The notes beneath the pieces were generated by a model. The model was given only the letters and a program-made list of their open reading frames with translations. It was not told where the DNA came from and made no database searches. 64,000 nt of DNA from Nemertoderma westbladi (Eukaryota > Animalia > Xenacoelomorpha). Both the position numbers and the translations under genes were made by a program. Location of the stretch: positions 51,577 through 115,576 of the forward strand of contig JAUCBJ010007649.1 of assembly GCA_032718475.1 (NCBI GenBank). Direction: 5' to 3'. How positions within the stretch are numbered: the stretch's first letter is position 1; each line of letters opens with the position of its first letter. Below are positions 8,422 to 30,817 of the stretch, piece after piece.

Positions 8422-8547
8422 ACTAAAGATAATTATGCGGGATACACGAGTGAAGAACTGAAGTCTATTGTCGAGTCGCAATGGAACTTCCCCGGACCCG
8501 GACTCCCGTTTGATTTATCAGAAGCTGCCTGGGAAGACATACACCGG

Positions 8548-11500
8548 ATGGGAGTAGCCAAGGAAACCATCGATCCAGCTGTGTGGAAGAGGTCTGCAGC
8601 CGGATACGCACAGGGATTCTTCAGCTCTATGGAGCGAGTAAAAGAACAACTGTTCCAACAACCTCAAGGACCTCAAGAGCAGAGACAACTGCTTTATCAA
8701 GTTAGAGAAAGAATTCTGCGAATCAGGCTAATCTTATCAGCCTTTGAGGAGGCTTCTAAACGAAGACAAGACACGTCGTTGCAAGTTGCCGTAAAGACTT
8801 GGTTTCAACGGGTGAGTCGCCAGGTTCAAGGAACAGCTCAGTGGAAAGCTCAGCTGGAGGAGCGCTCAACCCATGGAGAATCAACAGACGCTACTTTTTC
8901 CCAAGTGGAAAGTGAAGCGATGGCAGAGAAACCGCATAAGAGGGATGCCATTGACATCTATCTGTCAGACTATCAACGTTTTTTAGGTGATGACGAGTTG
9001 AGGAGAAGGTTAGAGGGACTTAGCCCTAATAGTGAAGGAACCAAGCTTGTGTTGGATGCCATCGATGTGGAAATGAGGGCTGCGAACCAGGCTAAATTTG
9101 ATGAACAACTCCGCATCACACGAGTCCAGGAGGAGCAAGTAAAGAAAAAACGTATAGAAGACAGAAAGAAAGCAGCAGTGGTAGCTGCAGAAGCAGAAAG
9201 AAAAGCGGCAGCGGCAGAGGCAGCGGCAGAGGCAAAGGCGGCAGAGGCAGCGGCAGAAGCAAAAGCGGCCGAAGCTGAAAGAAAGGCGGCAGAGGCAGTG
9301 GCAGAAGCAGAACGGAGAGCGACTGAAGAAACCACCCAATTAGAATTGGAAAACATTCAGGAGAATCAAGACTGCATAAATAAACAGTTAACAGCTAGTA
9401 ATATGCAGATGATGAATCGATCTACATATATATATGGATATGGATATACATCATCTGAGGAAGGCGATACCACCGATACTGAAGGCAAGGGAAATAGATC
9501 TCGTCTAAGTAGACGTAAAAGAACATTCCACCGTCAGAAATTGCCTGATTTGCCTCCAGCTGTTAGAAGGCAACTAAATAACACCAACTTAGGTAGTACA
9601 GAGCCCACAGACCAAATAATTAAAATAGAAAGACTCCCTACTATAGTAGATGAGCCTGAAATAATTAGGCCTGTTTTTGAAATCACCCCTTCGGTGATAG
9701 ATACACCTGTGCTCCCTGAAGCTACCTCTAAATTCCCTCTGCATAGCACTAAGCTACCTGTGCCCAGTAGAACTGCCCAGGAGACAGTTCAGGTCCTGGA
9801 CCCCGAGCGAAATATTCATGATTTGTCGCCCATTGTCCCTCGTCCGCCCGCTACAACGTTGGCGACTCCCGCTTCGGCGGTCGAATGGGTGGACGAGAGA
9901 CGGCGGGGGATGGATCTCCTGCTCGGGCAGATGCAGGAGACTGTTCAGCAATTCAAGGGCACAGTAAGGGAAAGTAGGCTAGAGTTGCAAGAAGTGCAGC
10001 AAAGTATCGCGCTAGAACGCGATAAATTAGTAAATACTCAAAGGGGTATACCACCACCCTCGGTAACAATGTGTCAACCTGTTAGGTCTGAAGTATCTCA
10101 TGCGCAAGGTGTGGAGCCTACACGCATATATACCGCTAGCGAAGTAGAAACTCCTATAGTGAACCCTATTAAGGGTAATTATAGACCTGTTGATAATGAC
10201 ATTCCCTATAGACCTGATCATAATCCGAGAAATTTATATACCGATAACTCGATATTAAATAACACGATGGCCCAAGAAAGTTTTACGCGTCAAATGGCTA
10301 GAACCGAAGCCCGGCAAGCGGTAAAGGTGGGAGAGATCGTCAAGTTCAATGGAGATGAGATGAAATGGTTACCTTTTAATGAATATTACAAAGATAACAT
10401 ACAGAACTCTGTACTATCTAATGGAGAAAAACTTAGATACCTCATCGAGTGCTTGGAAGGATCTCCTAAGTTAATGGCGTTAAAGTTTATTGGACATCCA
10501 GACGGATTAAGACAAGTTTGGGATACACTAAACATCAGGTATGGTAATAGGAATAACATCGCTGGGTATTTGTATGCAAAGTTAGTAGCGCCCCGAAAGT
10601 TTATTAGCAGCGGGATTATCGAGTTTTCCGATGAGATACAGGAGATCTGCAGACAATTAGATTGGCTAGGTAAGTCTCATGAGTATCAGAACACTATGGT
10701 TATTAGAGCAGTGGCTTCTACTTTACCGAAGGGTGGAGTAGGTACACGCTGGGATAAGAAAGTGTTATATATGATGGAACAACAACGACGAGACCCTACC
10801 ATGGCTGATCTCATGTCATTCCTAGATGGAGAAGTGAAATTACAGCTCCTGAAACTGTCCAGAGAGAAGACACCGGAAAACAAGGTAAGTGAAAAACCCG
10901 TCTCTAGGAGAAAGGTAACACCAGTGTGTTATACAGACGACGGCGAAAGCCAGACTTCTCAAGGAGAAGATAGCGGGAAAGACACTGATAGATCTTATTA
11001 TGTCAATAAAATGCCTAAAGATCAGGTAAGTAAATTCAAGTCTCGAGCAAATGATCGGAGAGAACAGGTAAGAAAAACTCCTCCCACGTCTCCCAAGAGA
11101 ATTCCGGTGAGAAAGCCCGAAGAAAAGGCAAGTGTACACAATGTGACTCAGATTAAGGTGAGTAACATCAAACCAAAATGTGCGCTATGTGATGGGACCC
11201 ATCGCTTGAATATGTGTGATGAATTTCTAAAGAAATCATTAACAGAGAGACGTGAAGTCATGTGGGACAAGCGGTTGTGTTATAATTGCCTCAGACAAGG
11301 ACATCAACGGCGAACCTGTTACTCAGACATAAGGTGTGCAAAGTGTGGTGCGAAACATCATATCTTGTTGCACGCTGAATTCGATCGAAATAGTCCTAAT
11401 CAGGTAAGTGATTCCGAACTACATGTCCAATTCAGTGATGTGAACGACACTGATCAATCTGAGATGGAAGGATTCTATACGGACGAGTTCTCCGACGAAA

Positions 11501-14500
11501 ACGAATCCTGTTACATGATAAATACCGCAGTGTATCGAGCACTCACATATGAAAAAGATACAGACAGCGACTTCACTCTAACTACTTCTGAGCGACAACC
11601 ATCGTGGAAAGCACCAACTTCCAATGTAGGAATCCGAGAATTTCCTGTAGTCCAGTTACGGGTCCATGGACCTCAGAAAAGCTATATAGTGAACGCCCTC
11701 CTGGACTCCGGCAGCACAGGAACATTCATTGATAAAGAACTAGCCGAAGACATCTTCGCTGGACAACCTAAGTTCCGAACCAAGCTAAATATGTCAGGCA
11801 TTATGCAAGTTTGGAAATCTACAGTAACAGCTGATTATTATGTAGGCGCGTTGTCCACCCCACAAGACGAACTAGGAGAACATAGCATAAGGTCAGTGAA
11901 ATTGGTGGCTATAAAGAACTTCGCTACTACTCAAGCAGACCTTTATAATTGGGACGAGGATGAGAGCATCCAACATCTTAAGATACCTCGATTCCAGACT
12001 GATTATCCTGGAGTGCAAATACTCCTCGGCCAAAACGCGCATGAGGCGCTGGAGACATTGGAGAAACGGCCTGCTCAACCGCAGCCACTACAGACCTATG
12101 CGGTAAGAACTAGAGTAGGTTGGTACTTTACTGGCCCTTCCCGTAGAACACTCAGAGAAAGACTACCGCAAGAGCGCGTCTACCAGGTGAGTGAATGGGA
12201 AGATGATACTAGTGAGGGAGACGATTTAACTGAGGGAACCCCATACTCCTCAGATAACGACGACGTGCACCAGCTTTTTGATGAGGAGAATACCATCGAC
12301 CTCCTTAAGGAAAACGAGGCTTGGCAAAACCAAGTGAACTTATGTCAACTGCTTTATCCAACTGAACGAGAAGCTTATAACGACGAGTTAAATGACGTCA
12401 TTGAGCGTTGTAATGCCAAGACTCGAGATGAACATGCCGTACCATTCTTTACGCAAGAGGCGGTAGAGCCCAATTCCTACGATAAAGCCTTGTCAGTGGA
12501 AGAGGAAAGGGCCAAGCAGATCCAAGAGACAACTACATGTTTCCTCAAAGATCAAGGTAGGTATGAAGTCGGTCTACCTTTCCGCAAGAGAGAACCGAAA
12601 TTCATCAATAACAGACCCTTGGCGGAAAAAAGAATCGCGCGACTCCATCGACGCCTTACGGCTAATTCTTCAGCTAAAGCAATGTACCAAACACAGCTGG
12701 ATAAATTTATTAGTAAGGGATACGCGGAGAGAGTACCGGAAGAAACACCTGTGACTGAAAGAACGTATTACTTAACTCACCATTACGTTCCTAAACCCGG
12801 TAAGCCACATGAAGTGAGAGTAGTGTTTGATGGCTCCGCTCTTTACATGGGTCAATCCCTTAACTCTGAATTGTTACCCGGACCCAACTTGCTTCAATCT
12901 TTGTTGGGAATTCTTTTAAGATTGAGACAATATTCGATTGCTTTCGCCTCCGATATAGAAGGCATGTTCTTACAAGTCAAGGTGTTAGACAGGGATCGAG
13001 ATAGTCTACGATTTCTGTGGTGGCCCGAAGGAGACCTCAACCAGAAACCGGTGGAGTACTGGATGACCATCCAGGCCTTTGGGATAATCTCAAGCCCTTC
13101 CAACGCCTGTTCGGTAGTGCGTACCACTGCAGAGGACAACCGAGAGGCCTTCTCTAAGGAAGTGATCGACAACATCAAGAGAGACATATACATGGACGAC
13201 AATCTGAAGTCCCTTCCATCAGTTGAGGAAGCCATTGAGGTCGCTAAAGGAACGGTAGAGTGCTTAAAAAGAGGTGGGTTTCGATTAACGAAATTCACCA
13301 GCAACTCCCGTGAGTTTCTGGAGTCGATCCCTGCGGAAGATCGAGGGGCGAAAGATCTAGATTTGATCAAAGATGATCTGCCAGAAACCAAGACACTCGG
13401 CTTGAAATGGGACACAGAGCGAGATATCCTGTTTTTCCAGCTAAAACAGCGAGATAATCCAGTTCGAACCAAACGGATTTGCTTAAGTATACTGAGCACT
13501 TATTTCGATCCATTGGGATTTATTAGCCCAGTTATCTTGATTGCTCGTAGTTTGGTACAACAAATGTGGCTTGAAAACCACTCATGGGACGATCCACTTA
13601 AGGGAGAATTATTGAAGAAGTGGATGAAATGGGAAGATTCTCTGCCGGCTATCGAGGATTTTATAATTTCCCGTTCATATTTTGGTCATGTTCTCCCTAC
13701 GTATTCCTATCAACTCCATGTGTTTGGAGATGCCAGCGATATGGGAATAGGTATAGTAGCCTATCTAAGAGTGGAAACTCCGGATGGAATCAAAGTCGCC
13801 CTGGTTACTTCTAAGGCATTAATCAACAACAAGTTGAAAGTTCCTCGAGCGGAGTTAAAAGCGGCTCTATACGCTACAGCCATCGGCCGGAATGTAACCG
13901 AACAGATTGACTATCCATTAGAGAAAACTGTCTATTGGACCGACGCTTTACTCGTGTTAGAGTATATAACCAATGAAGTCTGTCAGTTCAGCGTCTTCGT
14001 TACCAACAGGGTAGCCATCATACTTAGTCGCACGACGATGGACCAATGGAGACATTGCCCCGGAACGATTAATCCAGCAGACATCGCTTCCCGAGGAGCG
14101 ACTCCAAAGGAATTGGTAAATACTCCCGAATGGTTAGGTGGACCCGACTTTCTCTACAAAGAAGAAGAAGAATGGCCTCCCCATCTCACAACAGCAGAGA
14201 TCAGACAGGCCAAGGGAGCGGAGAAAGTTAAACCCAAAACTCGAGCGAGTAAATCGAAGTTGTTTAAACCTGCGGTTGATCTATCTGTATTATTTACTTC
14301 CGGAGAGGATGCTTTGGATCCGAAACCCACCGCCACGACTAAAGAAGTCTTGGAAATCCGTGACAAGGATTGGAAATCTGGACTACCAGATATCGCGCAA
14401 GGACTCTCACCCCTCTTGCAGAGAGCGATACGTCACTACAGCTCCTGGAATCGGCTCTGTAAAGCCGTCACCTATTTAAAACGATGTTTTCATCATCGTT

Positions 14501-16074
14501 ACTCCGGGACAAAGACCCATAGTGATGATGCTCCATCAACATCTGCACGAGTCCATGTTGTTAAAGATCTTCCCCAATACAAGGTATCCGACAGGTTTCT
14601 AAAGGAGAAGATCAGTTACCAGGAGCATGATGAAACCAACAAACAGATGCTGAGACTCCTACAATGCTATGAGGATCCCGATAAGTATTTCCTGTTGTTA
14701 AGAAATCCGCAGATGCGCTTAAGGGATCGCTTCTCTAGTACCATGATAGATGGGTTAATACGTGTTGGAGGCAGGCTCACCAACGCCCCATTATCCTTTG
14801 ACACTAAGTTTCCCATACTCATTAGAAATCTTGACATACAAATCAAGATGATTGTAGACGTTCATAGCAAACTGTATCATGCTGGAAGAGAACGAGTTCT
14901 GAGCGAAATTCGAACTCGCTACTATTTTTATAAACCCCGTAGGGCTCTGAACCAAGTCCTTAGGAACTGCATACCCTGTAGGAAAGCATTCAGTAGGCCT
15001 TTGACACAGCGAGAGGCAGAATTACCTAGGGAAAGAGTAAGCTTCTACGAACCACCCTTTACTAATACCGGTGTGGATTTATTTGGCCCTATTGAAGTAT
15101 ATCGTGCCCGGACTATAGTCAAGAGATGGTGTGTCATCTTCGTTTGTATGACTTGTAGAGCTATCCATCTCAATATGGTAAATGATCTATCCACCAACAG
15201 CTTCGTGTTGAGTTTACGACGACAGATCGCTCGCTTCGGAACCAGTAACACGATGAGATCGGATAAGGGAACGAACTTCATTGGCGCCAACAACGAAATT
15301 CAAGCTTACGTAAAGGACTGGAACAAAAGACAGGTGGACGATCAGCTAAAGATAACAGCGTCTAGCTGGACCTTCAATGCCGCCGACGCCCCTTGGTGGG
15401 GAGGAAGTTGGGAGAGATTGATTAGGAGCGTGAAGACTGCGTTCCACTTTATTGTACCTTGTCGCGCTTATCTCACCGACGAACTATTGCGGACGTTAAT
15501 GGAGGAAATCGCCGCCTATCTCAACGAAAGACCGCTTATGCCAGTCTCTTCAAGTCCTGATTCCCTGGAAGCGCTAACACCCGCGCACTTTCTACTGAAG
15601 AAACCCGTAGCCATGCTCCCACGATCGGAGATCACAGACGGAGACGAATACTGCCGTCGAACCTGGCAACTTATGCAGTTGCTATCCCGTCGTTTCGCTG
15701 ACCATTTCGAGAAACATTACCTGCCCACTCTACAACTTCGAACTAAGTGGTTTGCGCAGCAAGAAAACGTCAGCGCTGGAGACATGGTGCTTATTGTGGA
15801 CCCCGATCTCCCACGTAAGCGATGGCAAACAGGACGTATCATCGAGACTTATATCTCGAGCGATGGTTTGGTGCGATCAGTAGAACTCGTCGTCATGCGG
15901 CGTAACTATAAGAAACCAGGGATAGTCTTTGAGACTCAACAGCTCAACCGCCCAGTGGGTCGTTTATGTTTACTGGAAAGAGACAGAGAGCTCTCCGGAA
16001 ACTATGGAAGGCAAGAAACGCTTCCCACGACCACTTCCCTAATCCAACCGACATCTAGGGACTCCCCAACTTAA
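8548..16074 (+). CDS. gag-pol: E1 BEL/Pao Gag-Pol polyprotein (Gag with Cys/His knuckles, aspartic protease, RT, RNase H, integrase)
   Basis: CYNCLRQGHQRRTC knuckle; LLDSGS; YMDD; FGDASD, PRAEL, WTDA, NPADIASRG; HxxxxH/CxxC; GVDLFGP, SDKGTNF, WWGGSWERL. Confidence 0.97.
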   Translation: MGVAKETIDPAVWKRSAAGYAQGFFSSMERVKEQLFQQPQGPQEQRQLLYQVRERILRIRLILSAFEEASKRRQDTSLQVAVKTWFQRVSRQVQGTAQWKAQLEERSTHGESTDATFSQVESEAMAEKPHKRDAIDIYLSDYQRFLGDDELRRRLEGLSPNSEGTKLVLDAIDVEMRAANQAKFDEQLRITRVQEEQVKKKRIEDRKKAAVVAAEAERKAAAAEAAAEAKAAEAAAEAKAAEAERKAAEAVAEAERRATEETTQLELENIQENQDCINKQLTASNMQMMNRSTYIYGYGYTSSEEGDTTDTEGKGNRSRLSRRKRTFHRQKLPDLPPAVRRQLNNTNLGSTEPTDQIIKIERLPTIVDEPEIIRPVFEITPSVIDTPVLPEATSKFPLHSTKLPVPSRTAQETVQVLDPERNIHDLSPIVPRPPATTLATPASAVEWVDERRRGMDLLLGQMQETVQQFKGTVRESRLELQEVQQSIALERDKLVNTQRGIPPPSVTMCQPVRSEVSHAQGVEPTRIYTASEVETPIVNPIKGNYRPVDNDIPYRPDHNPRNLYTDNSILNNTMAQESFTRQMARTEARQAVKVGEIVKFNGDEMKWLPFNEYYKDNIQNSVLSNGEKLRYLIECLEGSPKLMALKFIGHPDGLRQVWDTLNIRYGNRNNIAGYLYAKLVAPRKFISSGIIEFSDEIQEICRQLDWLGKSHEYQNTMVIRAVASTLPKGGVGTRWDKKVLYMMEQQRRDPTMADLMSFLDGEVKLQLLKLSREKTPENKVSEKPVSRRKVTPVCYTDDGESQTSQGEDSGKDTDRSYYVNKMPKDQVSKFKSRANDRREQVRKTPPTSPKRIPVRKPEEKASVHNVTQIKVSNIKPKCALCDGTHRLNMCDEFLKKSLTERREVMWDKRLCYNCLRQGHQRRTCYSDIRCAKCGAKHHILLHAEFDRNSPNQVSDSELHVQFSDVNDTDQSEMEGFYTDEFSDENESCYMINTAVYRALTYEKDTDSDFTLTTSERQPSWKAPTSNVGIREFPVVQLRVHGPQKSYIVNALLDSGSTGTFIDKELAEDIFAGQPKFRTKLNMSGIMQVWKSTVTADYYVGALSTPQDELGEHSIRSVKLVAIKNFATTQADLYNWDEDESIQHLKIPRFQTDYPGVQILLGQNAHEALETLEKRPAQPQPLQTYAVRTRVGWYFTGPSRRTLRERLPQERVYQVSEWEDDTSEGDDLTEGTPYSSDNDDVHQLFDEENTIDLLKENEAWQNQVNLCQLLYPTEREAYNDELNDVIERCNAKTRDEHAVPFFTQEAVEPNSYDKALSVEEERAKQIQETTTCFLKDQGRYEVGLPFRKREPKFINNRPLAEKRIARLHRRLTANSSAKAMYQTQLDKFISKGYAERVPEETPVTERTYYLTHHYVPKPGKPHEVRVVFDGSALYMGQSLNSELLPGPNLLQSLLGILLRLRQYSIAFASDIEGMFLQVKVLDRDRDSLRFLWWPEGDLNQKPVEYWMTIQAFGIISSPSNACSVVRTTAEDNREAFSKEVIDNIKRDIYMDDNLKSLPSVEEAIEVAKGTVECLKRGGFRLTKFTSNSREFLESIPAEDRGAKDLDLIKDDLPETKTLGLKWDTERDILFFQLKQRDNPVRTKRICLSILSTYFDPLGFISPVILIARSLVQQMWLENHSWDDPLKGELLKKWMKWEDSLPAIEDFIISRSYFGHVLPTYSYQLHVFGDASDMGIGIVAYLRVETPDGIKVALVTSKALINNKLKVPRAELKAALYATAIGRNVTEQIDYPLEKTVYWTDALLVLEYITNEVCQFSVFVTNRVAIILSRTTMDQWRHCPGTINPADIASRGATPKELVNTPEWLGGPDFLYKEEEEWPPHLTTAEIRQAKGAEKVKPKTRASKSKLFKPAVDLSVLFTSGEDALDPKPTATTKEVLEIRDKDWKSGLPDIAQGLSPLLQRAIRHYSSWNRLCKAVTYLKRCFHHRYSGTKTHSDDAPSTSARVHVVKDLPQYKVSDRFLKEKISYQEHDETNKQMLRLLQCYEDPDKYFLLLRNPQMRLRDRFSSTMIDGLIRVGGRLTNAPLSFDTKFPILIRNLDIQIKMIVDVHSKLYHAGRERVLSEIRTRYYFYKPRRALNQVLRNCIPCRKAFSRPLTQREAELPRERVSFYEPPFTNTGVDLFGPIEVYRARTIVKRWCVIFVCMTCRAIHLNMVNDLSTNSFVLSLRRQIARFGTSNTMRSDKGTNFIGANNEIQAYVKDWNKRQVDDQLKITASSWTFNAADAPWWGGSWERLIRSVKTAFHFIVPCRAYLTDELLRTLMEEIAAYLNERPLMPVSSSPDSLEALTPAHFLLKKPVAMLPRSEITDGDEYCRRTWQLMQLLSRRFADHFEKHYLPTLQLRTKWFAQQENVSAGDMVLIVDPDLPRKRWQTGRIIETYISSDGLVRSVELVVMRRNYKKPGIVFETQQLNRPVGRLCLLERDRELSGNYGRQETLPTTTSLIQPTSRDSPT

Positions 16075-17721
16075 TATCGTTCGGAGTGGGCGTGTGACTC
16101 TATTATTTTATATTATTTTATTATTTTTATATTTATGTATGTATTACTATGTAATTTTATTATAATCGTTTTATTTAATTTAGTAGAATATTATTTAGCG
16201 ATTATTTAGTAGAATAGTGCAATATGTTCATGTTATTGCGTACGTAATTACTTATATTATATTTAGTGCGACGGCGAGAAATAATTCTTTTTCTCTTTCC
16301 TTACTGTTCGTATTATATTATAAATACGTAACTACAGTAAGATGAAATGTCCGTACTTATTAAAGTACAATAAAGCCACTACTATATTCAAGTATTATTG
16401 GTAGGCAGAGTATTAGGAATGCAAAGTTCAGATCCTCGTGTCTCGGCTAAACCAAGCTCTGGGTAGACCTTGGAAACGACTTGCCTCTTCACACTGACAT
16501 TGCTTCGTGCGATATTGCTCTCATACCGTATATTAAATAATACATATAGTAGCGTGAGGTCCCTCTAACAGTAGCGTGAAACGCAAATAAATCTGTTAAA
16601 CCCTTTGACCATCTGTAATTCTAGTCGATTAAGATATCGCGGCACCCACCGATATACTTGAAAGACAAATTCTAGAATCAGTGGTTAACGTCCCCAGACA
16701 AGTTCTGGAATAAATCGGTGCCCATCTCAAATATTAATTATTTAATATTTGCAAATCTAATAAATCAAAATCTGTAAAATTCAAATCCTTCAACAATTCT
16801 AGTCAATTAAGATATCGTAGCATTTACCGATATTCTTAAAAAGACAATTGTCATAGAATTCAGGATCTTGTGTCCCCAGACATATTCTAGAATCAAAATA
16901 TGTCCATCTAATTAGTAAATAATAAAATTTCAGGGAATAATTTAAATTCATGCCTTTTAATGAATTTAATAAATTGCCATTTTTTGCGCAATTTATAACA
17001 TTCCCAAAATTCCATTAATTAATAGATCACGGGAGCGGAGATTTATCTTCTTATGCGTATGAGTGTGCGAAAGTCTCCCAAACATAGTCAATAGCCGATA
17101 AAATTCATAAAGTCATGTATCAAACAGGACATTGACTATTAAAGAATTACTATTAAATAACATCCCAGATCTGTATGCATTGGAATTACCCTAATTCTAC
17201 CGCTAGCTTTGCATAATGTCACCATAGCAACAACCACGCTAGAATTAGAATTGAGTTAAAGGAACAATAGAAAGCTTGTCCCATTGAATAGCATAGGGAA
17301 TAAATAGCGCACTACTAGTATCCAAGGATACATAATAATACAGTGACATTCTGGAAGGCATTGACTAACAGACAAATGGCCCGAATGTGCGTAGTTGTGA
17401 CCAGTTGTGTGGTATTTGTGAGTTTATAGGTGAATGTTACTGCTAAAGTGTGTTTACAGTAGCTAGTCGCAATCGTGAAAGTAACCTAACTCTCCAAGGA
17501 AAACCTGAAGTACATCTAAGCCTTTGGGACGGACAGTGGAGTGACTTGTGCCGGTTATCGTTGTCGTTGTACGGCTACGTCGTTGGCGAAAGTATAGCGA
17601 CAGCGGTACATCGGCGCTGAGAATCTCACACTGTCCGGGGGCAAGGGAGAAGTAGGCAGCGACGCCCGCTTGCCTAATAAATATAAACTCATTATAATAT
17701 TGGTGAACTCGTATAGCAGAT

Positions 17722-19911
17722 ATGACTGAATTAATAGAAGATGATCTTGGTATCAGGGAGAGATATACTCTACCTTTACAAGCGTTTGTCGATAGCTTGA
17801 TACGCGGCGACGCTGATCCAACTACTACGGAGGACGAAGGTCGTTATATCGAACCGCCAATGTCCCAGGAGCAACTTACGCGTGAATTGGACTATAGAAA
17901 ATTCACTACTCGCTATACGCATCGTAATGGTACGTATATGGACTTCTTGACCACTGGTCATCCTATTGATTTACACGACACCGACGATGTAGACACCGAA
18001 AGGGAAATGGTTTTATTTAACTATCATACCCAGCGGAGTCGAAACGATAAATCGAGAATAGAACACGAGAACTCTATTCGAAATAAGCTCGAAAGAGAAG
18101 ACGTTGAAGAACCTAATAAACGTAGCGGCTTCAACGAATATCTAGAATTTCTAAGAGAGACCTATCTCAATGTTGCCAGTCAACAAAACCTCGAAACTCG
18201 ATATCCCCAAGGTATACATCCAGATCCTATAATGGAACTCAAACGGCTCTATTTTACGATGATGTATCTTACCGCCGATCGACCCCTACCTGTCGTTCCA
18301 GATAGCTTCGAACAGATGGAGGAGTATTGTAAAACTGGAGAGCGATCACCCGCGTTTCCCCTTCAGGACATGCGTCTTTGGTATTACTGTGACGAATGCC
18401 CTAGACCTAACCAGCAGATCGAAAGGCATAAACATCCGCGGAGACGTTGCGCTAAACACAGTTTTACGCGATATACTTATGGGAGTTTCGAGCGAAACCT
18501 TTTCGACGTATCACCTACGGTCGCGCGCCTTAAACGATCATTGAACAAACCCATGATCAGAGTTCCGGAATACTCGGTCAGACCTCCTCATTCCCAAGTG
18601 ATACCTCAAACTCTCGATCCTAATAGTATTACGGATCCTCCCGAGCTATACTCACTGTTCAAAGATCTAGTGTTACCTGAACAGTTGATTGGTGGCGCTC
18701 CAGTAGTGGGTTCGTTAGATATTCGCCAACCTTACCTCGCTGGACTAGGACGCGGTCATCTAATATCACCGTTTAACCCCTACAATCGTCCTGGCCTCCC
18801 TCCGATCCAACCTGTTACAGAAGTCGAAGAGAGCGTGATACGAAATGCATTGGACGCTATTCGGCAGAAAATCGGAAAAGGAACTTACGATTGCTTGGAG
18901 AAACGTAAATTGCAACAACAAGTCCAAGCGGTGAAAGAACTAGCTTTGCCCCAGTTCGATAGAGAAATACAGAATCTAGAGGAGGACATCGAACGTGGAC
19001 GAACCTACTCCTTACAGGAATTCCTGGACGAGCGCTTGCAACAACAAGCTGAGGAAAATCAGCTCGAGGAGAGACATATAGAGCTGACTGAGAGGGAAGA
19101 AGCTGCTTTAGCTCAACCAGAAACTCAAATTCTCGTGACGGATCTCTATTCCAAAACGATCCTCCACCCCTCGATGGTTCCTCATTTTAAAGACAAGCTC
19201 TTTGCTACGGTACAGCCTCAACCACCGGTTAATACTGATCTCAGATCTCACGAGCTCATTGCTGACGCTCCTATGATACAACGTCCACCCATAGCGGCTG
19301 CTCGTGTCGATGGTGTACTTGTTGAGCCTCCGGACAATAGAGCGGATCTTGTCCGTCGCATGGTACACGATGTTAACATACGCGCTAGACCTTTGCCGGA
19401 CTCATTTTATGGAATTAAGGATCATCCTTATTACGTCAATTTAAAGCAATATTACATGGTAAAACCAGAAGATCCTACGCATAGTCTGAAGTTTCTACCA
19501 TTGATCAATCCTCTCGATCTCGTCGAACTCGAACAACTACAAAAACATCTAGATCAGCTAGTTAAACTAAACTCATTTCGAAAACCGTATAATATTTCCA
19601 GAATAGAGAAAGAAATATTACCTCCGTACAATCTTGATGGTTTCATTAAAACTCGATTGGTACACTGGAATCTTGACGTGTTATTCGAGGAAGAAAGAAT
19701 AAAACGATATGGAGATGTGGAAACCTATAGTACACAATGCTTAAAGTATAGAGATTTACCCAATGCTAGCGAATGCGCTACTTTGTGGCATCCAGTGGGA
19801 ATGACTCTCGAAAACGCCACTAAAGAATGGAATGAGACTCTTAATGTTATCGAGATGTATGGCGTTGTTACTTATGACAACGAAGGTAGCGTTCCGGTGG
19901 GAGAACTATGA
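17722..19911 (+). CDS. E1 accessory ORF, N-terminal part (CxxC...CxxH domain, coiled coil, ExoI-like YDNEG at the end)
   Basis: 729-aa ORF homologous to E2 48853 ORF (DPxxExxRLYxTxxYLT; CDEC/CGAC; RCAKH/RCSHH; YDNEG). Confidence 0.85.
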   Translation: MTELIEDDLGIRERYTLPLQAFVDSLIRGDADPTTTEDEGRYIEPPMSQEQLTRELDYRKFTTRYTHRNGTYMDFLTTGHPIDLHDTDDVDTEREMVLFNYHTQRSRNDKSRIEHENSIRNKLEREDVEEPNKRSGFNEYLEFLRETYLNVASQQNLETRYPQGIHPDPIMELKRLYFTMMYLTADRPLPVVPDSFEQMEEYCKTGERSPAFPLQDMRLWYYCDECPRPNQQIERHKHPRRRCAKHSFTRYTYGSFERNLFDVSPTVARLKRSLNKPMIRVPEYSVRPPHSQVIPQTLDPNSITDPPELYSLFKDLVLPEQLIGGAPVVGSLDIRQPYLAGLGRGHLISPFNPYNRPGLPPIQPVTEVEESVIRNALDAIRQKIGKGTYDCLEKRKLQQQVQAVKELALPQFDREIQNLEEDIERGRTYSLQEFLDERLQQQAEENQLEERHIELTEREEAALAQPETQILVTDLYSKTILHPSMVPHFKDKLFATVQPQPPVNTDLRSHELIADAPMIQRPPIAAARVDGVLVEPPDNRADLVRRMVHDVNIRARPLPDSFYGIKDHPYYVNLKQYYMVKPEDPTHSLKFLPLINPLDLVELEQLQKHLDQLVKLNSFRKPYNISRIEKEILPPYNLDGFIKTRLVHWNLDVLFEEERIKRYGDVETYSTQCLKYRDLPNASECATLWHPVGMTLENATKEWNETLNVIEMYGVVTYDNEGSVPVGEL

Positions 19912-19920
19912 ACTACGCGA

Positions 19921-21519
19921 ATGATACATATACGAGGACTCGCTGGTTCTACCCACGTATTCACTCGAGCGTGTTCCGACGTGATTGATTATTCTTTTGA
20001 AACCCTTACGGAGACACAAAAGAAACTTCGACATGGACAATTCGAGCTCGCGCAGCGTTACGTCACCGACACCGAGCGCAAACCGGCCATGGGTATCGAT
20101 GGATCAATGTTACCCCAACCTGTGCTCGAAATGTTGTTTAACGAAAGAATCCTAAAAATTGGCTCAGCTGTTTATGGAGATCTCCAAAACGACTTCCGGA
20201 ATATGGAAAACATTCCATACCCTTTCGTTGATACTCAGCTGATTGCTCCTTGGGCCGAAGGCCGAGGTTTCTTTCGCACTATGTATGCCAATACACCCAG
20301 CGACATTACTAAAGTACAACGGACATCCATCGGACATCTTGCCTTTCAAGAATATGGATGGAACTTCAAAGTTGGAAATCCTATCAATTACCAGCAGGTA
20401 TATGGAGATCATTACTCTCGTTTATATTTTGATGGACCATTAACTGCGCCTGGTGCCGTATATAGCTTTATGAGTGTTCCACTTCGCCCTTCCTTAGCTA
20501 TATACACGATCTTTGAAAACGCAGCACTTGCCGGTTGGCTAGCCGATGTGTGCAGTCGTACCATACGCGCTCATCCCTTAAAACTTGGAACTAAACTCGC
20601 CAAGTTAGACGAACACAATAAGTTCATACGTTTCGAATGTTTCCGGCGCTTTCTGACTCCGTTCCGTAACGTCGATAGTCAGTTCAAGGACCGCGCGCTG
20701 ACCAAACTCAGTCTGAGAGACTCAGCTGCGGAGAAATTGAGTAGCGCTGGATTTGCCGTGTTTCAAGACGTTTGTATACAGAACTTACATTCATCTGTTA
20801 TACAAAGACCCCGAATACCTACAGGTTATTCTGTCGTGGAAATACAGACAGTGGATCCACTTACTGAGACAGACGCACCCACTTCGTCTATACAGCTGGA
20901 GGATGAACCAGTGTGCTTGGAATCAGAAGCGATTCAGCCTACAACTTCCCGGAGCAGTGACAATGATTATGTCATAGAGTGGTATCAAGGTCCACAACGT
21001 CTCACAGCGTACGATTATCGACACGCCAACTACGTTTCTCGAAAACGTTGTCGATTATGCGCATCGAGAGACCACTTCACTCCTCTAGACTCGAGCGTAC
21101 CTTGTTCCTATTTCCTCGAACAACCGATGATGGAAATATATTGTGCTTATTGCAGACTTAATAACTCTCATATCTTTGCCGTCTGCCCACAATTTATGAC
21201 TCAATGTCACTACTGTCAACTTAAAGGACATGAAAGTTACAATTGTCCCTTTAATCGCGATTTAGAGAGCGTAGACGAGATAATCACCCTGCGATACATC
21301 CGAGCTTGGGAAGCGAACGCGGATTTACATTGCGAATCTCGACATCGCTATTACCCTGGACGAGCTTACGAAGGAGTTTACGCGTTCCATCCTTATCTCT
21401 TCGCGTCGATTGAACAGAAAACACGCGTACCAAGTTACGAGTTAATGAAGCGTGTTGGTGAGTGTATTTCCACCAAGTTTGTCAGAAAATACCTTAGAAA
21501 CGTTAGAAACGTTTGCTGA
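19921..21519 (+). CDS. E1 accessory ORF, C-terminal part: 3'-5' exonuclease-like domain plus three CCHC knuckles; in frame with the 17722 ORF across one TGA
   Basis: LPQPVLEMLFNERILKIGSAVYGDL...FVDT resembles WRN/EXD ExoII; YTIFE at the ExoIII position; CHYCQLKGHESYNC knuckle. Confidence 0.8.
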   Translation: MIHIRGLAGSTHVFTRACSDVIDYSFETLTETQKKLRHGQFELAQRYVTDTERKPAMGIDGSMLPQPVLEMLFNERILKIGSAVYGDLQNDFRNMENIPYPFVDTQLIAPWAEGRGFFRTMYANTPSDITKVQRTSIGHLAFQEYGWNFKVGNPINYQQVYGDHYSRLYFDGPLTAPGAVYSFMSVPLRPSLAIYTIFENAALAGWLADVCSRTIRAHPLKLGTKLAKLDEHNKFIRFECFRRFLTPFRNVDSQFKDRALTKLSLRDSAAEKLSSAGFAVFQDVCIQNLHSSVIQRPRIPTGYSVVEIQTVDPLTETDAPTSSIQLEDEPVCLESEAIQPTTSRSSDNDYVIEWYQGPQRLTAYDYRHANYVSRKRCRLCASRDHFTPLDSSVPCSYFLEQPMMEIYCAYCRLNNSHIFAVCPQFMTQCHYCQLKGHESYNCPFNRDLESVDEIITLRYIRAWEANADLHCESRHRYYPGRAYEGVYAFHPYLFASIEQKTRVPSYELMKRVGECISTKFVRKYLRNVRNVC

Positions 21520-22722
21520 ATTGCCCCGTTATTTTTATTATCTTTTACATTAAAATACTCTGTAGTTGATTTAATAGGCGTAAGAGACCGTATTATTGCT
21601 GTATTGGTGTTTTTTAGAGGATCTAAGACCTATTTCCTCCGTATGTGTACTGTGAAAGGCATAGTTGATGATTCTATGGCAATTCCATGACGCAAAGGGT
21701 GATAGCTACTCTTGAACAGTAGTTACTATGACTACGGTTAACAGCTGATATTCATACCTGTTGATATTCTTTGTTCTACGGCGTCTCTCAGTTCAGTCAG
21801 CCAATCAGAGCATTTTTATGGCTCTTGTAGATAAATTTCCTAGAAATCACGTAATGCTTTATGTGCAGTGTTTACATTCAGTCCTGAGCCAGGAGAGAAC
21901 GGCTTGGAAATATTTTGTGCCTTTCTGTTTTTAGCTTAACACTAGTAGGCTTAATTATAAGGACATATATCCGTTATCACACACTGAATCACTGTGCAAC
22001 TCAACTAAACAAACCAAATCTGCATGTACCATACACTGTGCATACTTTATATTGTTATACTGCTATTTACTGTCGGTCCTTCATAATATGGTTGATGAAT
22101 TATTATATTTGGAATAACGATAAATAACCCCGAAACCCAATATTCTTGATATACCGAAGGTAAGAGAGAAAGGTTATATATAACGATTGTGACTTATGTT
22201 AAAGTGGTTTGAAGTGAATCTAATGTTATTTGATAGACCCTACATGAGTCGGTCCGTGTTCCTTTTATATGTGACTAAAATCAGTGAAGATCGGCAGATT
22301 AGTGTGCAGTATTGTGCAGCATTGTGTATGAGTGAGACTGATAACGAAGCATTTCCTAAAGAATGCGCCATATATGTGAATTATAACTAAGCCATATCGT
22401 TGTGAGTAGTTTAAGTCATAACTCTGTTTATATAGATAGAGCGCCACGTCCTAAAGGAACTGTTAATATTCCCCGAAGGTGAATAATATTGTCAGAGATT
22501 ATATAATACTGTCAGTCGAATAATACATTAGGCTTACCTAGCAATAAGATTAAGCCGTCGAACCCAATCTCCCGGGTATATCCAGCGGGTGAATGATCGC
22601 GCACAGATTGGTTTCGACTAGTGTAGTGAATCAAATACTTGTCATAGGCTAAAAGTGATTTATTATCTAAAAGACATCCTAATTTGGCGGGTTAAACTGC
22701 CAAAGGTCTGAAAGCGCGAACA
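21512..22722 (+). repeat. E1 3' LTR lacking the first 10 bp
   Basis: Homology to the 5' LTR starts at TTTGCTGAATTG (equivalent to 4452); no PPT upstream. Confidence 0.93.
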
Positions 22723-25700
22723 ATACCATTAGTTTACTTTGGATAGGAGTAGCGCCCACCCCTACCATCGGGTGTAAACGAGGTATACCATTAGTTTGCT
22801 TTGGATAGGAGTAGCGCCCACCCCTACACTCGGGTGTAAACGAGGCATACCATTAGTTTGCTTTGGATAGGAGTAGCGCCCACCCCTACCCTCGGGTGTA
22901 AACTATCATACCATTAGTTTACTTTGGATAGGAGTAGCGCCCACCCCTACCATCGGGTGTAAACGAGGTATACCATTAGTTTGCTTTGGATAGGAGTAGC
23001 GCCCACCCCTACCATCGGGTGTAAACGAGGTATACCATTAGTTTGCTTTGGATAGGAATAGCGCCCACCCCTACCCTCGGGTGTAAACGAGGCATACCAT
23101 TAGTTTACTTTGGATAGGAGTAGCGCCCACCCCTACCATCGGGTGTAAACGAGGTATACCATTAGTTTGCTTTGGATAGGAGTAGCGCCCACCCCTACCC
23201 TCGGGTGTAAACGAGGAATACCATTAGTTTGTAAACGAGGCATACCATTAGTTTGCTTTGGATAGGAGTAGCGCCCACCCTTACCCTCGGGTGTAAATGA
23301 GGCATACCATTAGTTTGTAAACGAGGCATACCATTAGTTTGTAAACGAGGCATACCATTAGTTTGTAAACGAGGCATACCATTAGTTTGCTTTGGATAGG
23401 AGTAGCGCCCACCCCTACCCTCGGGTGTAAACGAGGCATACCATTAGTTTGTAAACGAGGCATACCATTAGTTTGTAAACGAGGAATACCATTAGTTTGT
23501 AAACGAGGAATACCTTTAGTTTGTAAACGGGGAATACCATTAGTTTAAACGAGGAATACCATTAGTTTGTAAACGAGGAATACCATTAGTTTGTAAACGA
23601 GGAATACCTTTAGTTTATAAACGAGGAATACCATTAGTTTGTAAACGAGGAATACCATTAGTTTGTAAACGAGGAATACCTTTAGTTTGTAAACGAGGAA
23701 TACCATTAGTTTATAAACGAGGAATACAATTAGTTTGTAAACGAGGAATACCATTAGTTTGTAAACGAGGAATACCATTAGTTGGTAAACGAGGAATACC
23801 ATTAGTTTGTAAACGAGGAATACCTTTAGTTTGTAAACGAGGAATACCATTAGTTTGTAAACGAGGAATACCATTAGTTTGTAAACGAGGAATACCTTTA
23901 GTTTGTAAACGAGGAATACCATTAGTTTATAAACGAGGAATACCATTAGTTTGTAAACGAGGAATACCTTTAGTTTGTAAACGAGGAATACCATTAGTTT
24001 ATAAACGAGGAATACCATTAGTTTGTAAACGAGGCATACCTTTAGTTTGTAAACGAGGAATACCATTAGTTTGTAAACGAGGAATACCGTTAGTTTGTAA
24101 ACGAGGTATACCATTAGTTTGTAAGCGAGGAATACCATTAGTTTGTAAACGAGGAATACCATTAGTTTGTAAACGAGGCATACCATTAGTTTGTAAACGA
24201 GGAATACCATTAGTTTGTAAACGAGGCATACCATTAGTTTACTTTGGATAGGAGTAGCGCCCACCCCTACCCTCGGGTGTAAACGAGGCATACCATTAGT
24301 TTGTAAACGAGGCATACCATTAGTTTGTAAACGAGGAATACCATTAGTTTATAAACGAGGAATACCATTTGTTTATAAACGAGGAATACCATTTAGTTTG
24401 TAAACGAGGCATACCTTTAGTTTGTAAACGATGAATACCATTAGTTTGTAAACGAGGAATACCATTAGTTTGTAAACGAGGTATACCTTTAGTTTGTAAG
24501 CGAGGAATACCATTAGTTTGTAAAGGAGGAATACCATTAGTTTGTAAACGAGGCATACCATTAGTTTGTGAACGAGGCATACCATTAGTTTGTAAACGAG
24601 GAATACCATTAGTTTGTAAACGAGGCATACCATTAGTTTGTAAACGAGGAATACCATTAGTTTGTAAGCGAGGAATACCATTAGTTTGTAAACGAGGAAT
24701 ACCATTAGTTTGTAAACGAGGAATGCCATTAGTTTGTAAACGAGGAATACCTTTAGTTTGTAAACGAGGAATACCATTAGTTTATAAACGAGGAATACCA
24801 TTAGTTTATAAACGAGGAATACCATTTAGTTTGTAAACGAGGCATACCTTTAGTTTGTAAACGATGAATACCATTAGTTTGTAAACGAGGAATACCATTA
24901 GTTTCTAAACGAGGTATACCATTAGTTTGTAAGCGAGGAATACCATTAGTTTGTAAACGAGGAATACCATTAGTTTGTAAGCGAGGAATACCATTAGTTT
25001 GTAAACGTGGAATACCATTAGTTTGTAAACGAGGTATACCATTAGTTTGTAAACGAGGAATACCTTTAGTTTGTAAACGAGGAATACCATTAGTTTATAA
25101 ACGAGGAATACCATTAGTTTATAAACGAGGAATACCATTTAGTTTGTAAACGAGGCATACCTTTAGTTTGTAAACGATGAATACCATTAGTTTGTAAACG
25201 AGGCATACCATTAGTTTGTAAACGAGGCATACCTTTAGTTTGTAAACGAGGAATACCATTAGTTTGTAAACGAGGAATACCATTAGTTTGTAAACGAGGC
25301 ATACCATTAGTTTGTAAACGAGGAATACCTTTAGTTTGTAAACGAGGAATACCATTAGTTTGTAAACGAGGAATACCATTAGTTTGTAAACGAGGCATAC
25401 CATTAGTTTGCTTTGGATAGGAGTAGCGCCCACCCCAACCCTCGGGTGTAAACGATGCATACCATTAGTTTGTAAACGAGGCATACCATTAGTTTGCTTT
25501 GGATAGGAGTAGCGCCCACCCCTACCCTCGGGTGTAAACGATGCATACCATTAGTTTGTAAACGAGGCATACCATTAGTTTGCTTTGGATAGGAGTAGCG
25601 CCCACCCCTACCCTCGGGTGTAAACGAGGCATACCATTAGTTTGTAAACGAGGAATACCATTAGTTTGTAAACGAGGCATACCATTAGTTTGCTTTGGAT

Positions 25701-28527
25701 AGGAGTAGCGCCCACCCCGACCCTCGGGTGTAAACGAGGCATACCATTAGTTTGTAAACAAGGCATACCATTAGTTTGCTTTGGATAGGAGTAGCGCCCA
25801 CCCCTGCCCTCGGGTGTAAACGAGGCATACCATTAGTTTGTAAACGAGGCATACCATTAGTTTGTAAACGAGGCATACCATTAGTTTGCTTTGGATAGGA
25901 GTAGCGCCCACCCCTACCCTCGGGTGTAAACGAGGCATACCATTAGTTTGAAAACGAGGCATACCATTAGTTTGTAAACGAGGCATACCATTAATTTGCT
26001 TTGGATAGGAGTAGCGCACACCCCTACACTCGGGTGTAAACGATGCATACCATTAGTTTGCTTTGGATAGGAGTAGCGCCCACCCCTACACTCGGGTGTA
26101 AACGATGCATGCCATTAGTTTGCTTTGGATAGGAGTAGCGCCCACCCTTACCCTCGGGTGTAAACTATCATACCATTAGTTTGCTTTGGATAGGAGTAGC
26201 GCCCACCCCTTCACTCGGGTGTAAACGATGCATACCATTAGTTTGCTTTGGATAGGAGTAGCGCCCACCCCTACCCTCGGGTGTAAACGATCATACCATT
26301 AGTTTGCTTTGGATAGGAGTAGCGCCCACCCCTACACTCGGGTGTAAACGAGGCATACCATTAGTTTGCTTTGGATAGGAGTAGCGCCCACCCCTACCCT
26401 CGGGTGTAAACTATCATACCATTAGTTTACTTTGGATTGGAGTAGCGCCCACCCCTACCCTCGGGTGTAAACGAGGCATACCATTAGTTTACTTTGGATA
26501 GGAGTAGCGCCCACCCCTACCATCGGGTGTAAACGAGGTATACCATTAGTTTGCTTTGGATAGGAGTAGCGCCCACCCCAACCCTCGGGTGTAAACGAGG
26601 CATACCATTAGTTTGTAAACGAGGCATACCATTAGTTTGCTTTGGATAGGAGTAGCGCCCACCCTTACCCTCGGGTGTAAATGAGGCATACCATTAGTTT
26701 GTAAACGAGGCATACCATTAGTTTGTAAACGAGGCATACCATTAGTTTGCTTTGGATAGGAGTAGCGCCCACCCCTACCCTCGGGTGTAAACGAGGCATA
26801 CCATTAGTTTGTAAACGAGGCATACCTTTAGTTTGTAAACGAGGAATACCATTAGTTTGTAAACGAGGAATACCGTTAGTTTGTAAACGAGGTATACCAT
26901 TAGTTTGTAAGCGAGGAATACCATTAGTTTGTAAACGAGGAATACCATTAGTTTGTAAACGAGGCATACCATTAGTTTGTAAACGAGGAATACCATTAGT
27001 TTGTAAACGAGGCATACCATTAGTTTACTTTGGATAGGAGTAGCGCCCACCCCTACCCTCGGGTGTAAACGAGGCATACCATTAGTTTGTAAACGAGGCA
27101 TACCATTAGTTTGTAAACGAGGAATACCATTAGTTTATAAACGAGGAATACCATTTGTTTATAAACGAGGAATACCATTTAGTTTGTAAACGAGGCATAC
27201 CTTTAGTTTGTAAACGATGAATACCATTAGTTTGTAAACGAGGAATACCATTAGTTTGTAAACGAGGTATACCTTTAGTTTGTAAGCGAGGAATACCATT
27301 AGTTTGTAAACGAGGAATACCATTAGTTTGTAAACGAGGCATACCATTAGTTTGTAAACGAGGCATACCATTAGTTTGTAAACGAGGAATACCATTAGTT
27401 TGTAAACGAGGCATACCATTAGTTTGTAAACGAGGAATACCATTAGTTTGTAAGCGAGGAATACCATTAGTTTGTAAACGAGGAATACCATTAGTTTGTA
27501 AACGAGGAATGCCATTAGTTTGTAAACGAGGAATACCTTTAGTTTGTAAACGAGGAATACCATTAGTTTATAAACGAGGAATACCATTAGTTTATAAACG
27601 AGGAATACCATTTAGTTTGTAAACGAGGCATACCTTTAGTTTGTAAACGATGAATACCATTAGTTTGTAAACGAGGAATACCATTAGTTTCTAAACGAGG
27701 TATACCATTAGTTTGTAAGCGAGGAATACCATTAGTTTGTAAACGAGGAATACCATTAGTTTGTAAGCGAGGAATACCATTAGTTTGTAAACGAGGAATA
27801 CCATTAGTTTGTAAACGAGGTATACCATTAGTTTGTAAACGAGGAATACCTTTAGTTTGTAAACGAGGAATACCATTAGTTTATAAACGAGGAATACCAT
27901 TAGTTTATAAACGAGGAATACCATTTAGTTTGTAAACGAGGCATACGTTTAGTTTGTAAACGATGAATACCATTAGTTTGTAAACGAGGCATACCATTAG
28001 TTTGTAAACGAGGCATACCTTTAGTTTGTAAACGAGGAATACCATTAGTTTGTAAACGAGGAATACCATTAGTTTGTAAACGAGGCATACCATTAGTTTG
28101 TAAACGAGGAATACCTTTAGTTTGTAAACGAGGAATACCATTAGTTTGTAAACGAGGAATACCATTAGTTTGTAAACGAGGCATACCATTAGTTTGATTT
28201 GGATAGGAGTAGCGCCCACCCCAACCCTCGGGTGTAAACGATGCATACCATTAGTTTGTAAACGAGGCATACCATTAGTTTGCTTTGGATAGGAGTAGCG
28301 CCCACCCCTACCCTCGGGTGTAAACGATGCATACCATTAGTTTGTAAACGAGGCATACCATTAGTTTGCTTTGGATAGGAGTAGCGCCCACCCCTACCCT
28401 CGGGTGTAAACGAGGCATACCATTAGTTTGTAAACGAGGAATACCATTAGTTTGTAAACGAGGCATACCATTAGTTTGCTTTGGATAGGAGTAGCGCCCA
28501 CCCCGACCCTCGGGTGTAAACGAGGCA
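22723..28527. repeat. Continuation of the 24/62-bp satellite with a higher-order repeat of about 2786 bp
   Basis: Same units; variant patterns recur at +2786 (24241/27027, 25114/27900). Confidence 0.97.
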
Positions 28528-28670
28528 TGATGAATTATTTCACTATAAGGTAGCATTTGTAGTTTAACTTTAACGTAAAAACTTTTGAAAATCCGACGTA
28601 TTTTGATTAAGTTACAGTAATGTAATATGCCTATTTATATTTGTACACATAAAACCCTTAGGTACTCTCG

Positions 28671-28740
28671 TGGCGTAGTGGTCAGATGGTTAAGGCGTTG
28701 GTTACATTACGTAGGTTACGAGTTCGAATCCCAGTCGGGA
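28671..28740 (+). other. tRNA-derived sequence with Pol III A and B boxes inside the E2 LTR (second copy 54787-54856)
   Basis: TGGTCAGATGGTTAAGGCG resembles the Ser/Leu tRNA D-arm; B-box GTTCGAATCCC; T-run at about 28749; no clean cloverleaf. Confidence 0.6.
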
Positions 28741-28787
28741 AATTTGTATTTTGGGGCCATTTATTTTCGTTTAGGTGCTAATTGGTA

Positions 28788-30807: not shown

Positions 30808-30817
30808 GTAGGAAGTA
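30808..30817 (+). promoter_or_regulatory. E2 non-tRNA primer-binding site candidate (GTAGGAAGTA)
   Basis: Directly follows the LTR; exact reverse complement of LTR 29535-29544 (TACTTCCTAC). Confidence 0.62.

Follow-up and report, generated by a model that had tools for sequence, protein, structure and literature searches.

Two divergent BEL/Pao retrotransposons of the xenacoelomorph Nemertoderma westbladi each encode, in the position of env, a long accessory protein whose core is, with high probability, a divergent 3'-5' exonuclease of the RNase D/WRN (DEDDy) type, as judged from sequence profiles and a predicted structure. Both elements, here called E1 and E2, lie on the forward strand of a 64,000-nucleotide (nt) stretch of contig JAUCBJ010007649.1 (GenBank assembly GCA_032718475.1, positions 51,577 to 115,576), which we refer to as the window. 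The accessory gene is real and under constraint, and a conserved gene of this kind has probably not been described so far for BEL/Pao elements. Coordinates of all features are collected in Table 1.

A third gene in two BEL/Pao elements

E1 and E2 are both assigned to BEL/Pao because the gag-pol open reading frame (ORF) of each matches the Pfam families Peptidase_A17 (E = 1e-35 and 1e-39), DUF1759 and DUF5641; the assignment is thus one by domains and long terminal repeats (LTRs), not by a reverse transcriptase tree. The two elements share 41% identity in reverse transcriptase/RNase H, 38% in integrase and 24–29% in gag, and blastn finds no match between their DNA sequences. Downstream of pol and a spacer of 1647 nt (E1) or 731 nt (E2), each carries a long ORF on the same strand, and the ORF and BEL/Pao domain matches confirm what a first-pass annotation of the window had claimed about its position. 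In E1 the single in-frame TGA noted in that annotation was found again, and at the composition of this ORF the chance of encountering at most one stop in 1265 codons is about 1e-28. The E2 ORF is broken by two insertions, and its three in-frame pieces add up to 3756 nt, i.e., exactly the 1251 codons plus stop that had been deduced by removing the insertions. When the E1 protein (X at the stop) was compared with the E2 pieces, matches were obtained over 369 (27% identity, E = 3e-26), 360 (24%, E = 4e-18) and 177 amino acids (aa; 31%, E = 1e-9), and the sequence blocks that had been listed as shared are all present. Since the identity of 24–31% is roughly at the level of gag, it fits inheritance of the gene from a common ancestor of E1 and E2. 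A gene on the opposite strand of 17722–21519 was considered and dropped, as the one reverse frame translated contains many stops and no reverse ORF of at least 150 aa overlaps the region. The 420 nt ahead of the E1 ORF start revealed no strong splice acceptor.

A length of about 1250 aa, as given by the first-pass annotation, applies to E2 and is not established as the native length of the E1 protein, because the E1 ORF has probably been truncated on the 3' side. It enters the 3' LTR, five of the first ten bases of this LTR differ from the 5' LTR, there is no purine tract ahead of it, and the E2 protein extends about 230 aa beyond the corresponding point. In one contig of a public sequencing run (X5), the corresponding junction has both a purine tract and an unaltered beginning of the LTR. 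A short tandem duplication is located at this junction (21493–21511), as expected of a repaired deletion.

The breaks in the two ORFs belong to these copies alone. At the E1 stop base all covering contigs differ from the window in each of four public runs, which rules out readthrough or recoding of the TGA. Contigs devoid of the second E2 insertion (50735–52286) occur in three of the four runs, and loose contig ends at 48804 continue into sequence upstream of the first insertion, a nested LTR element, in two of them. Introns are likewise ruled out: each of the two E2 breaks is an insertion with a target duplication, and DNA copies without it exist. The best-supported 40 of 775 differences between contigs and window left 38 variants after subtraction of one upstream of the ORF and of the stop site; 29 of these are at third positions, 27 are silent compared with an expected silent fraction of 22–30% (P at most 2e-7), and none makes a stop, a tally that is not to be read as a dN/dS ratio. 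Of the best 12 of 23 insertions or deletions, eight are just upstream of the ORF, one is in the LTR, one is in frame, and two are frameshifts seen in run X4 only. The same run contains internally deleted copies of both families; copies in which the exonuclease region is deleted or frameshifted weigh against the role proposed below.

Homology of the probable exonuclease core

Relatives of the core were recognized with profiles. A profile of the two cores, from which the CCHC knuckles were left out, retrieved two matches from 1.84 billion proteins. One of them, P0002, proved to be a repeat artefact and was discarded. The other, P0001 (E = 4e-6), is a 648-aa singleton from a 9.4-kb contig; it has the core and three knuckles in common with the element proteins, lacks their long N-terminal part, and aligned to the E1/E2 core at a probability of 97. 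With P0001 added, the three-core profile had just two matches at E ≤ 10 among 177,635 PDB sequences, namely EXD2 (E = 0.41) and RNase D (E = 2.2), and the E1 core matches two NCBIfam RNase D models (E = 0.004 and 0.029). For comparisons in the opposite direction, five bacterial DEDDy profiles were built from 65 PF01612 domains. E1, E2 and P0001 each outscored 300 of 300 shuffles against the pooled profile, and E1 and P0001 were above all shuffles against the RNase D set. In hhalign the three-protein alignment matched bacterial DEDDy families at a probability of 87–91 with scores of 43–46 (null maximum of 23 in 40 column shuffles), a match that covers the ExoII block only; the two proteins of the window alone reached a probability of 36. 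All three proteins match the first four invariant columns of the family (D, E, K, D), as does one of 60 shuffles each. P0001 also matched DNA_pol_A_exo1 clusters of the Atlas, the best of them (0.86) with CCHC motifs, which we take as a lead only. With respect to subgroup, EXD2 ranks first in the three-core PDB profile and Foldseek searches, and RNase D in the bacterial-profile and NCBIfam searches. No further relatives were found among longer proteins, viral contigs, metagenome contigs and phage records by searches that were word-limited or weighted towards prokaryotes and hence do not imply absence.

Predicted active site and structural model

The active site is predicted to be D-E-D-Y-E, with three canonical acids and a fourth that is probably Glu rather than Asp. 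Residues of EXD2 used for comparison were taken from PMC6648332. The ExoI motif D-x-E at the end of strand 1 was aligned in three of three MAFFT modes, and its register was missed when MAFFT was run on the three element-type proteins alone. The ExoII Asp of the core aligns with that of EXD2 and RNase D. For ExoIII, the family profile places Y229/E233 of P0001 clearly, and the P0001 segment in turn maps best to Y928/E932 of E1 (score 23, next 3) and to the equivalent residues of E2 (score 15, next 4).

A usable AlphaFold model was obtained with the unbroken 238-aa domain of E2 together with E1, P0001 and 59 bacterial DEDDy rows cut before ExoIII. It has a pLDDT of 64, with 80–94 in the core and 40–59 in the last helix. 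The best Foldseek match was EXD2 (E = 1.7e-4). VIA-align placed 44 of 48,161 chains at Z ≥ 8 with a best Z of 12.0 (rmsd of 3.2–3.9 over about 155–170 residues in the best 14 rows), and the 50 rows listed are, judging from their titles, all DEDD domains. The less circular part of the match is the docking of the last helix at the ExoIII position, as the seed rows gave no information on this helix. Provided that the helix aligns without gaps, the alignment ends put the Glu on D501 of Klenow and on D230 of the trypanosome RNase D TbRND, and one residue off D155 of E. coli RNase D. The Klenow exchange D501E reportedly leaves much of the activity in place. The first-pass annotation had read a WRN/EXD2/Mut-7 signature; a specific origin from that group is not borne out since exonucleases of the RNase D, WRN, Nibbler, Exd1, NrnC and Pol I types all score at Z 10–12 and are not separated.

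Several results weigh against an exonuclease with this active site. Neither Pfam nor single-sequence PDB searches with E1 and E2 gave an exonuclease match, the sole NCBIfam match of E2 is an unrelated family outside the core motifs, and no usable Atlas match was obtained with the E2 core. The score of E2 against the RNase D set lacks significance (21 of 300 shuffles), and one 26-member bacterial profile gave no match. Direct alignment of the family to E1 and E2 is inconsistent for ExoIII, where two other registers score similarly, such that the placement depends on P0001 and the model; moreover, 67 of 67 bacterial sequences have Asp at the position of the fourth acid. AlphaFold yielded no usable fold from the window's two sequences without seeding (pLDDT 31). 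The seeded model is partly circular and has no shuffled control, and the choice by eye of its seed alignment (A8; A5–A7 were dropped with blocks out of register) adds to the circularity.

Some of these findings would also be expected if the protein were a divergent env product or an unrelated fold with a chance likeness to the motifs, namely the lack of significant Pfam and single-sequence PDB matches, of a usable Atlas match for E2 and of a usable unseeded fold. We consider this highly improbable in view of the shuffle-controlled profile matches, the independent library matches, the outside relative P0001 and the absence of a hydrophobic segment. A sliding hydropathy scan, used in place of a dedicated predictor, detected no membrane segment (top 19-residue values of 1.21 in E1 and 1.48 in E2) and no signal-like N-terminus in either protein, consistent with the first-pass annotation. 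Likewise, no fusogen signal appeared, the modelled 238-aa domain matching DEDD folds while about 1000 aa lie outside the model. The DEDDy-like core proposed previously is thus supported by profile, outside-relative and model evidence, and the AlphaFold and Foldseek comparison named as a check in that proposal agrees for the seeded, partly circular model and failed for the unseeded one. Taken together, we hold a DEDDy fold of the core to be highly probable and, with only modest confidence, predict that it is catalytically active.

Conserved blocks outside the core

The N-terminal conserved block, which matches no known family, ends in cysteine and histidine residues that may form a zinc site; its only match in the PDB has E = 0.39. 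Three CCHC knuckles follow the core as described in the first-pass annotation, except that the spacing of the first knuckle of E1 is CX2CX4HX9C, with a longer last spacer. Also the suggested likeness to the Air1/2 knuckles is real and at the same time weak: the knuckle profile gave seven PDB matches with Air2 as the best (E = 0.034), followed by retroviral nucleocapsids and Lin28, and for the P0001 knuckles retroviral nucleocapsids rank above Air2.

Given that three quarters of the protein are outside the nuclease domain, the fold and the knuckles might serve as a catalytically weak or dead adaptor that binds element RNA for export, transport or packaging, similar to Egalitarian, EXD1 or, in role, CERV of Cer1. 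The Glu at the fourth acidic position fits this model, as do Egalitarian and Exd1 among the fold matches. EXD1 and Maelstrom are inactive RNA-binding derivatives of DEDD enzymes (PMC5408684), and CERV is encoded in the env position and required for export of genomic RNA (PMC10309623). However, D, E, D, Y and the fourth acid are kept in three of three proteins that are only 21–33% identical, which is unusual for a dead enzyme, and we regard a mere adaptor function as unlikely.

Primer position

A TGG-type tRNA primer site was found neither in E1 (no TGG before offset 59) nor in E2 (300 nt) nor in the nested element, although pairing with an internal tRNA fragment is possible. In all three elements, perfect complementarity to a segment of the own LTR begins exactly at +1 after the 5' LTR and extends over 12 (E1), 10 (E2) and 9 nt (nested element), with a different sequence in each. 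That length is reached by 0, 32 and 3 of 5000 resampled LTRs and by 1, 7 and 6 of 5999 other internal starts, respectively, and a shift by one base into the LTR reduces the complementarity to 8, 5 and 4 nt. On the basis of this pairing we think it quite likely that the elements are self-primed. The LTR RNA beyond the duplex would measure 745 nt in E1, 1263 nt in E2 and 179 nt in the nested element. Assembly of a primer at a splice junction was ruled out, as in all three elements the LTR complement forms one uninterrupted stretch without an AG directly ahead of it. TCAGT motifs, which we take to be initiators of the insect type, are present 15–40 nt upstream of the LTR complement in E2 (29505–29510) and in the nested element (41795–41818); the primer may therefore not consist of the transcript's very first bases.

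Proposed role and alternatives

We propose, at somewhat less than even chances, that the enzyme acts as a 3'-trimming nuclease on the RNA of the element that encodes it. It might more specifically mature the self-primer, a tentative and rather doubtful model. RNA initiated in the LTR would pair with the primer position and leave 179–1263 nt of LTR RNA past the duplex. As is the case in the RNase D of trypanosomes, the knuckles would bind this single-stranded RNA and deliver its 3' end to the active site. The enzyme would remove the overhang, or polish it after a cut, and stop at the duplex. The remaining 3'-OH would then sit where reverse transcriptase must start. The primer could be supplied by a second LTR transcript, by a rough-cut product or by the genome's own 3' end, given that the 3' LTR holds the same complementary segment. 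RNase D-family enzymes tend to stall at duplexes. They trim single-stranded 3' ends of structured RNAs (PMC5408684), and because the duplex of a self-primer has to end in a 3'-OH, a knuckle-guided exonuclease could finish it. As the 3' end of the self-primer is predictable to the base (4917 or 21977 in E1; 29544 or 55657 in E2), the nuclease function is directly testable. Of the two roles put forward in the first-pass annotation, primer maturation has gained a candidate substrate through the self-priming signature, while anti-silencing has gained no evidence.

Three points argue against primer maturation. In the Ty3/gypsy element Tf1, RNase H is sufficient to produce the self-primer (PMC7175516), and hence an exonuclease is unnecessary in principle. 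The pairing also occurs in the nested element, which lacks the exonuclease gene as well as pol and would need the enzyme in trans. Finally, no role has been demonstrated for the DEDDy ORFs of rotifer elements (PMC5408684). That a BEL/Pao lineage dropped tRNA priming altogether and encodes its own exoribonuclease to chew the overhang back to the primer-site duplex is, as a whole, an unlikely scenario.

An active exoribonuclease could alternatively protect the element by degrading or mis-trimming small RNAs of the host (piRNA, siRNA) or their precursors. A mut-7-like role has been raised by Rodriguez et al. (PMC5408684) and is compatible with Nibbler/Mut-7 (Z 10.6, 170 residues aligned, rmsd 3.9) and Exd1 (Z 10.2) being among the close folds and with an EXD1-like cluster as the second Atlas match of P0001. 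Both families also seem to have many diverged copies as estimated from thousands of read contigs, although contig depth differs from copy number. The Nibbler and Exd1 folds, however, are not separated from RNase D, WRN and Pol I domains, and the missing tRNA site, which may be independent, would be left unexplained. We rate this anti-silencing function as rather unlikely; if correct, it would make E1 and E2 an animal case of LTR elements with an enzymatic counter-defence.

The model is matched by WRN and Pol I proofreading domains (Z 11–12) no less well than by RNases, and DEDDy enzymes also act on single-stranded DNA (PMC5408684). The protein might thus trim cDNA ends prior to integration or remove mismatches made by reverse transcriptase. 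This is very unlikely in our view, as the sequence matches favour RNase D with the Pol I set being the weakest in hhalign, the Air2-like knuckles suggest RNA as the substrate, and the gene is separate from pol.

Organization of the window

E1 and E2 lie within a satellite array. The left target duplication of E1 (4437–4441) and the 5' end of E2 (28523–28527) fall within about five bases of the same position in the same 24/62/86-bp satellite unit, which may reflect a target preference. No matching target duplication was found around E2. E1 has a non-coding leader of 2.3 kb (5663–7992), and in pol of E2 a 12-bp tandem repeat (38369–38773) encodes a low-complexity insert between RNase H and integrase. 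The nested element is very young, with no LTR mismatches; its gag-like ORFs are located at 42112–43524 and 44066–45646, and internal tandem repeats are found near 46200–46700. A rearranged piece of its family makes up the 3' flank of E2 (56918–58700; inverted match to 43591–43684, direct matches to 45269–45919). The insertion at 50735–52286 has internal 163-bp repeats, and its read-contig depth is far above that of the flanking ORF.

Table 1. Features of the E1 and E2 elements (positions refer to the window)
Feature	Position	Strand	Remarks
E1, target duplication	4437–4441 and 22723–22727		5 bp
E1, whole element	4442–22722	+	18 kb; 1221-bp LTRs, TG...CA
E1, 5' LTR	4442–5662	+	1221 bp, TG...CA; 15 mismatches to 3' LTR, 5 within first 10 bases
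E1, LTR segment complementary to 12 bases after 5' LTR	4906–4917; second copy 21966–21977	+	candidate self-primer
E1, primer-binding position	5663–5674	+	no TGG-type tRNA site
E1, gag-pol (BEL/Pao)	7993–16074	+	single in-frame TAA at 8419–8421
E1, accessory ORF	17722–21519	+	1265 codons; in-frame TGA at 19909–19911; probably truncated at 3' end
E1, N-terminal conserved block	18223–18459	+	ends in C223, C226, C243, H246; possible zinc site
E1, DEDDy-like exonuclease domain	19810–20565	+	predicted: D719 (19876), E721 (19882), D820 (20179), Y928 (20503), E932 (20515)
E1, three CCHC knuckles	21049–21246	+	C1110–C1175
E1, conserved block after knuckles	21307–21366	+	common to E1 and E2
E1, 3' LTR	21502–22722	+	first 10 bases altered; no purine tract ahead
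E2, whole element	28528–56922	+	2.3-kb LTRs
E2, 5' LTR	28528–30807	+	2280 bp; 43 mismatches and 14 gap runs to 3' LTR
E2, LTR segment complementary to 10 bases after 5' LTR	29535–29544; second copy 55648–55657	+	
E2, primer-binding position	30808–30817	+	no TGG within 300 nt
E2, gag-pol (BEL/Pao)	31770–40628	+	open
E2, accessory ORF, piece 1	41360–41492	+	start codon to nested element
Nested LTR element in E2 ORF	41493–48803	+	identical 529-bp LTRs; gag-like ORFs, no pol seen; 5-bp target duplication
Nested element, primer position	42022–42030		pairs with 41834–41842 (9 nt)
E2, accessory ORF, piece 2	48809–50734	+	N-terminal Cys/His block and uninterrupted exonuclease domain
E2, exonuclease domain	50020–50733	+	predicted: D (50086), E (50092), D (50356), Y (50671), E (50683)
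Insertion in E2 ORF	50735–52286	.	1552 bp; terminal inverted repeats, TTAA duplication; piggyBac-like, non-coding
E2, accessory ORF, piece 3	52291–53987	+	three CCHC knuckles (52833–53012), conserved block, basic low-complexity tail
E2, purine-rich tract ahead of 3' LTR	54634–54643	+	7 of 10 purines
E2, 3' LTR	54644–56922	+	

Relation to known systems

DEDDy genes downstream of pol were published in 2017 for the rotifer Juno/Vesta and Athena/Terminon elements, with a DEED motif (PMC5408684; for reviews, see PMC6431247 and PMC5718144). The kind of gene was therefore already described, and what appears new is its occurrence in BEL/Pao. No published case of a nuclease gene in the env position of BEL/Pao elements was found in the open literature (Repbase and subscription journals were outside this search), and the main text of a BEL/Pao survey (PMC3118150, sequence supplements not included) contains neither 'exonuclease' nor 'accessory'. 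Common to the rotifer ORF3 and the gene described here are an RNase D-like product, a location after pol in the place of env, the absence of a transmembrane segment and a catalytic motif that is altered, here probably so. By contrast, the carrier here is BEL/Pao, the motif is probably D-E-D-E rather than DEED (third acid D), and the protein, at least 1250 aa long, has a Cys/His block in its N-terminal part and three knuckles towards the C-terminus, a comparison made by description. The text of the rotifer paper does not contain the term 'CCHC', and its passages on knuckles place them in gag and pol only (PMC5408684).

An architectural parallel is TbRND, in which an RNase D domain is followed by CCHC fingers at the C-terminus; these fingers bind RNA and stimulate its cleavage (PMC7797062, PDB 7c42). 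The order of an RNase D domain and tandem fingers is shared, the structural model matches TbRND at Z 10.1 (167 residues aligned, rmsd 3.8), and the Glu is probably in register with Asp230. However, TbRND is a cellular enzyme of the mitochondrion that acts on guide RNA and has four fingers near the domain, whereas the element-encoded protein, with 14% identity, has three fingers about 160 aa downstream (E1). With Air1/Air2 of the TRAMP complex and Rrp6 the elements share the knuckle spacing of Air2 and a core of the Rrp6/RNase D superfamily, but the knuckle match is shared with retroviral nucleocapsids and Lin28, and no HRDC domain was seen.

Self-priming has a precedent in Tf1, where RNase H releases an 11-nt primer (PMC7175516). 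As in Tf1 and Tf2, E1 and E2 have no tRNA site, and the primer position pairs from the LTR edge with the element's own LTR RNA, over about 11 nt in Tf1. Unlike the Tf elements, the carriers are BEL/Pao and have an exonuclease gene, and the likeness is one of sequence pairing. Belpaoviridae are described as having gag, pol and an optional env, genomes of 4–10 kb, LTRs of 0.2–1.2 kb and priming by tRNA-Arg/Gly (ICTV, PMC8742986). E1 and E2 conform to this description in their gag-pol domains, TG...CA LTRs and, for E1, the 5-bp target duplication, and depart from it in the 18-kb size of E1, the 2.3-kb LTRs of E2, a third gene that is not env and the lack of a visible tRNA site.

Our findings extend the retroelement DEDDy genes from rotifers to BEL/Pao, with a different architecture and with evidence of long retention. 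The LTR-complementary primer position provides a specific candidate substrate for these nucleases. If the proposed maturation of the self-primer were true, the priming of LTR elements would gain a third mode, in addition to tRNA and to self-priming with a primer cut by RNase H, and a retroelement DEDDy gene would for the first time have a defined role.

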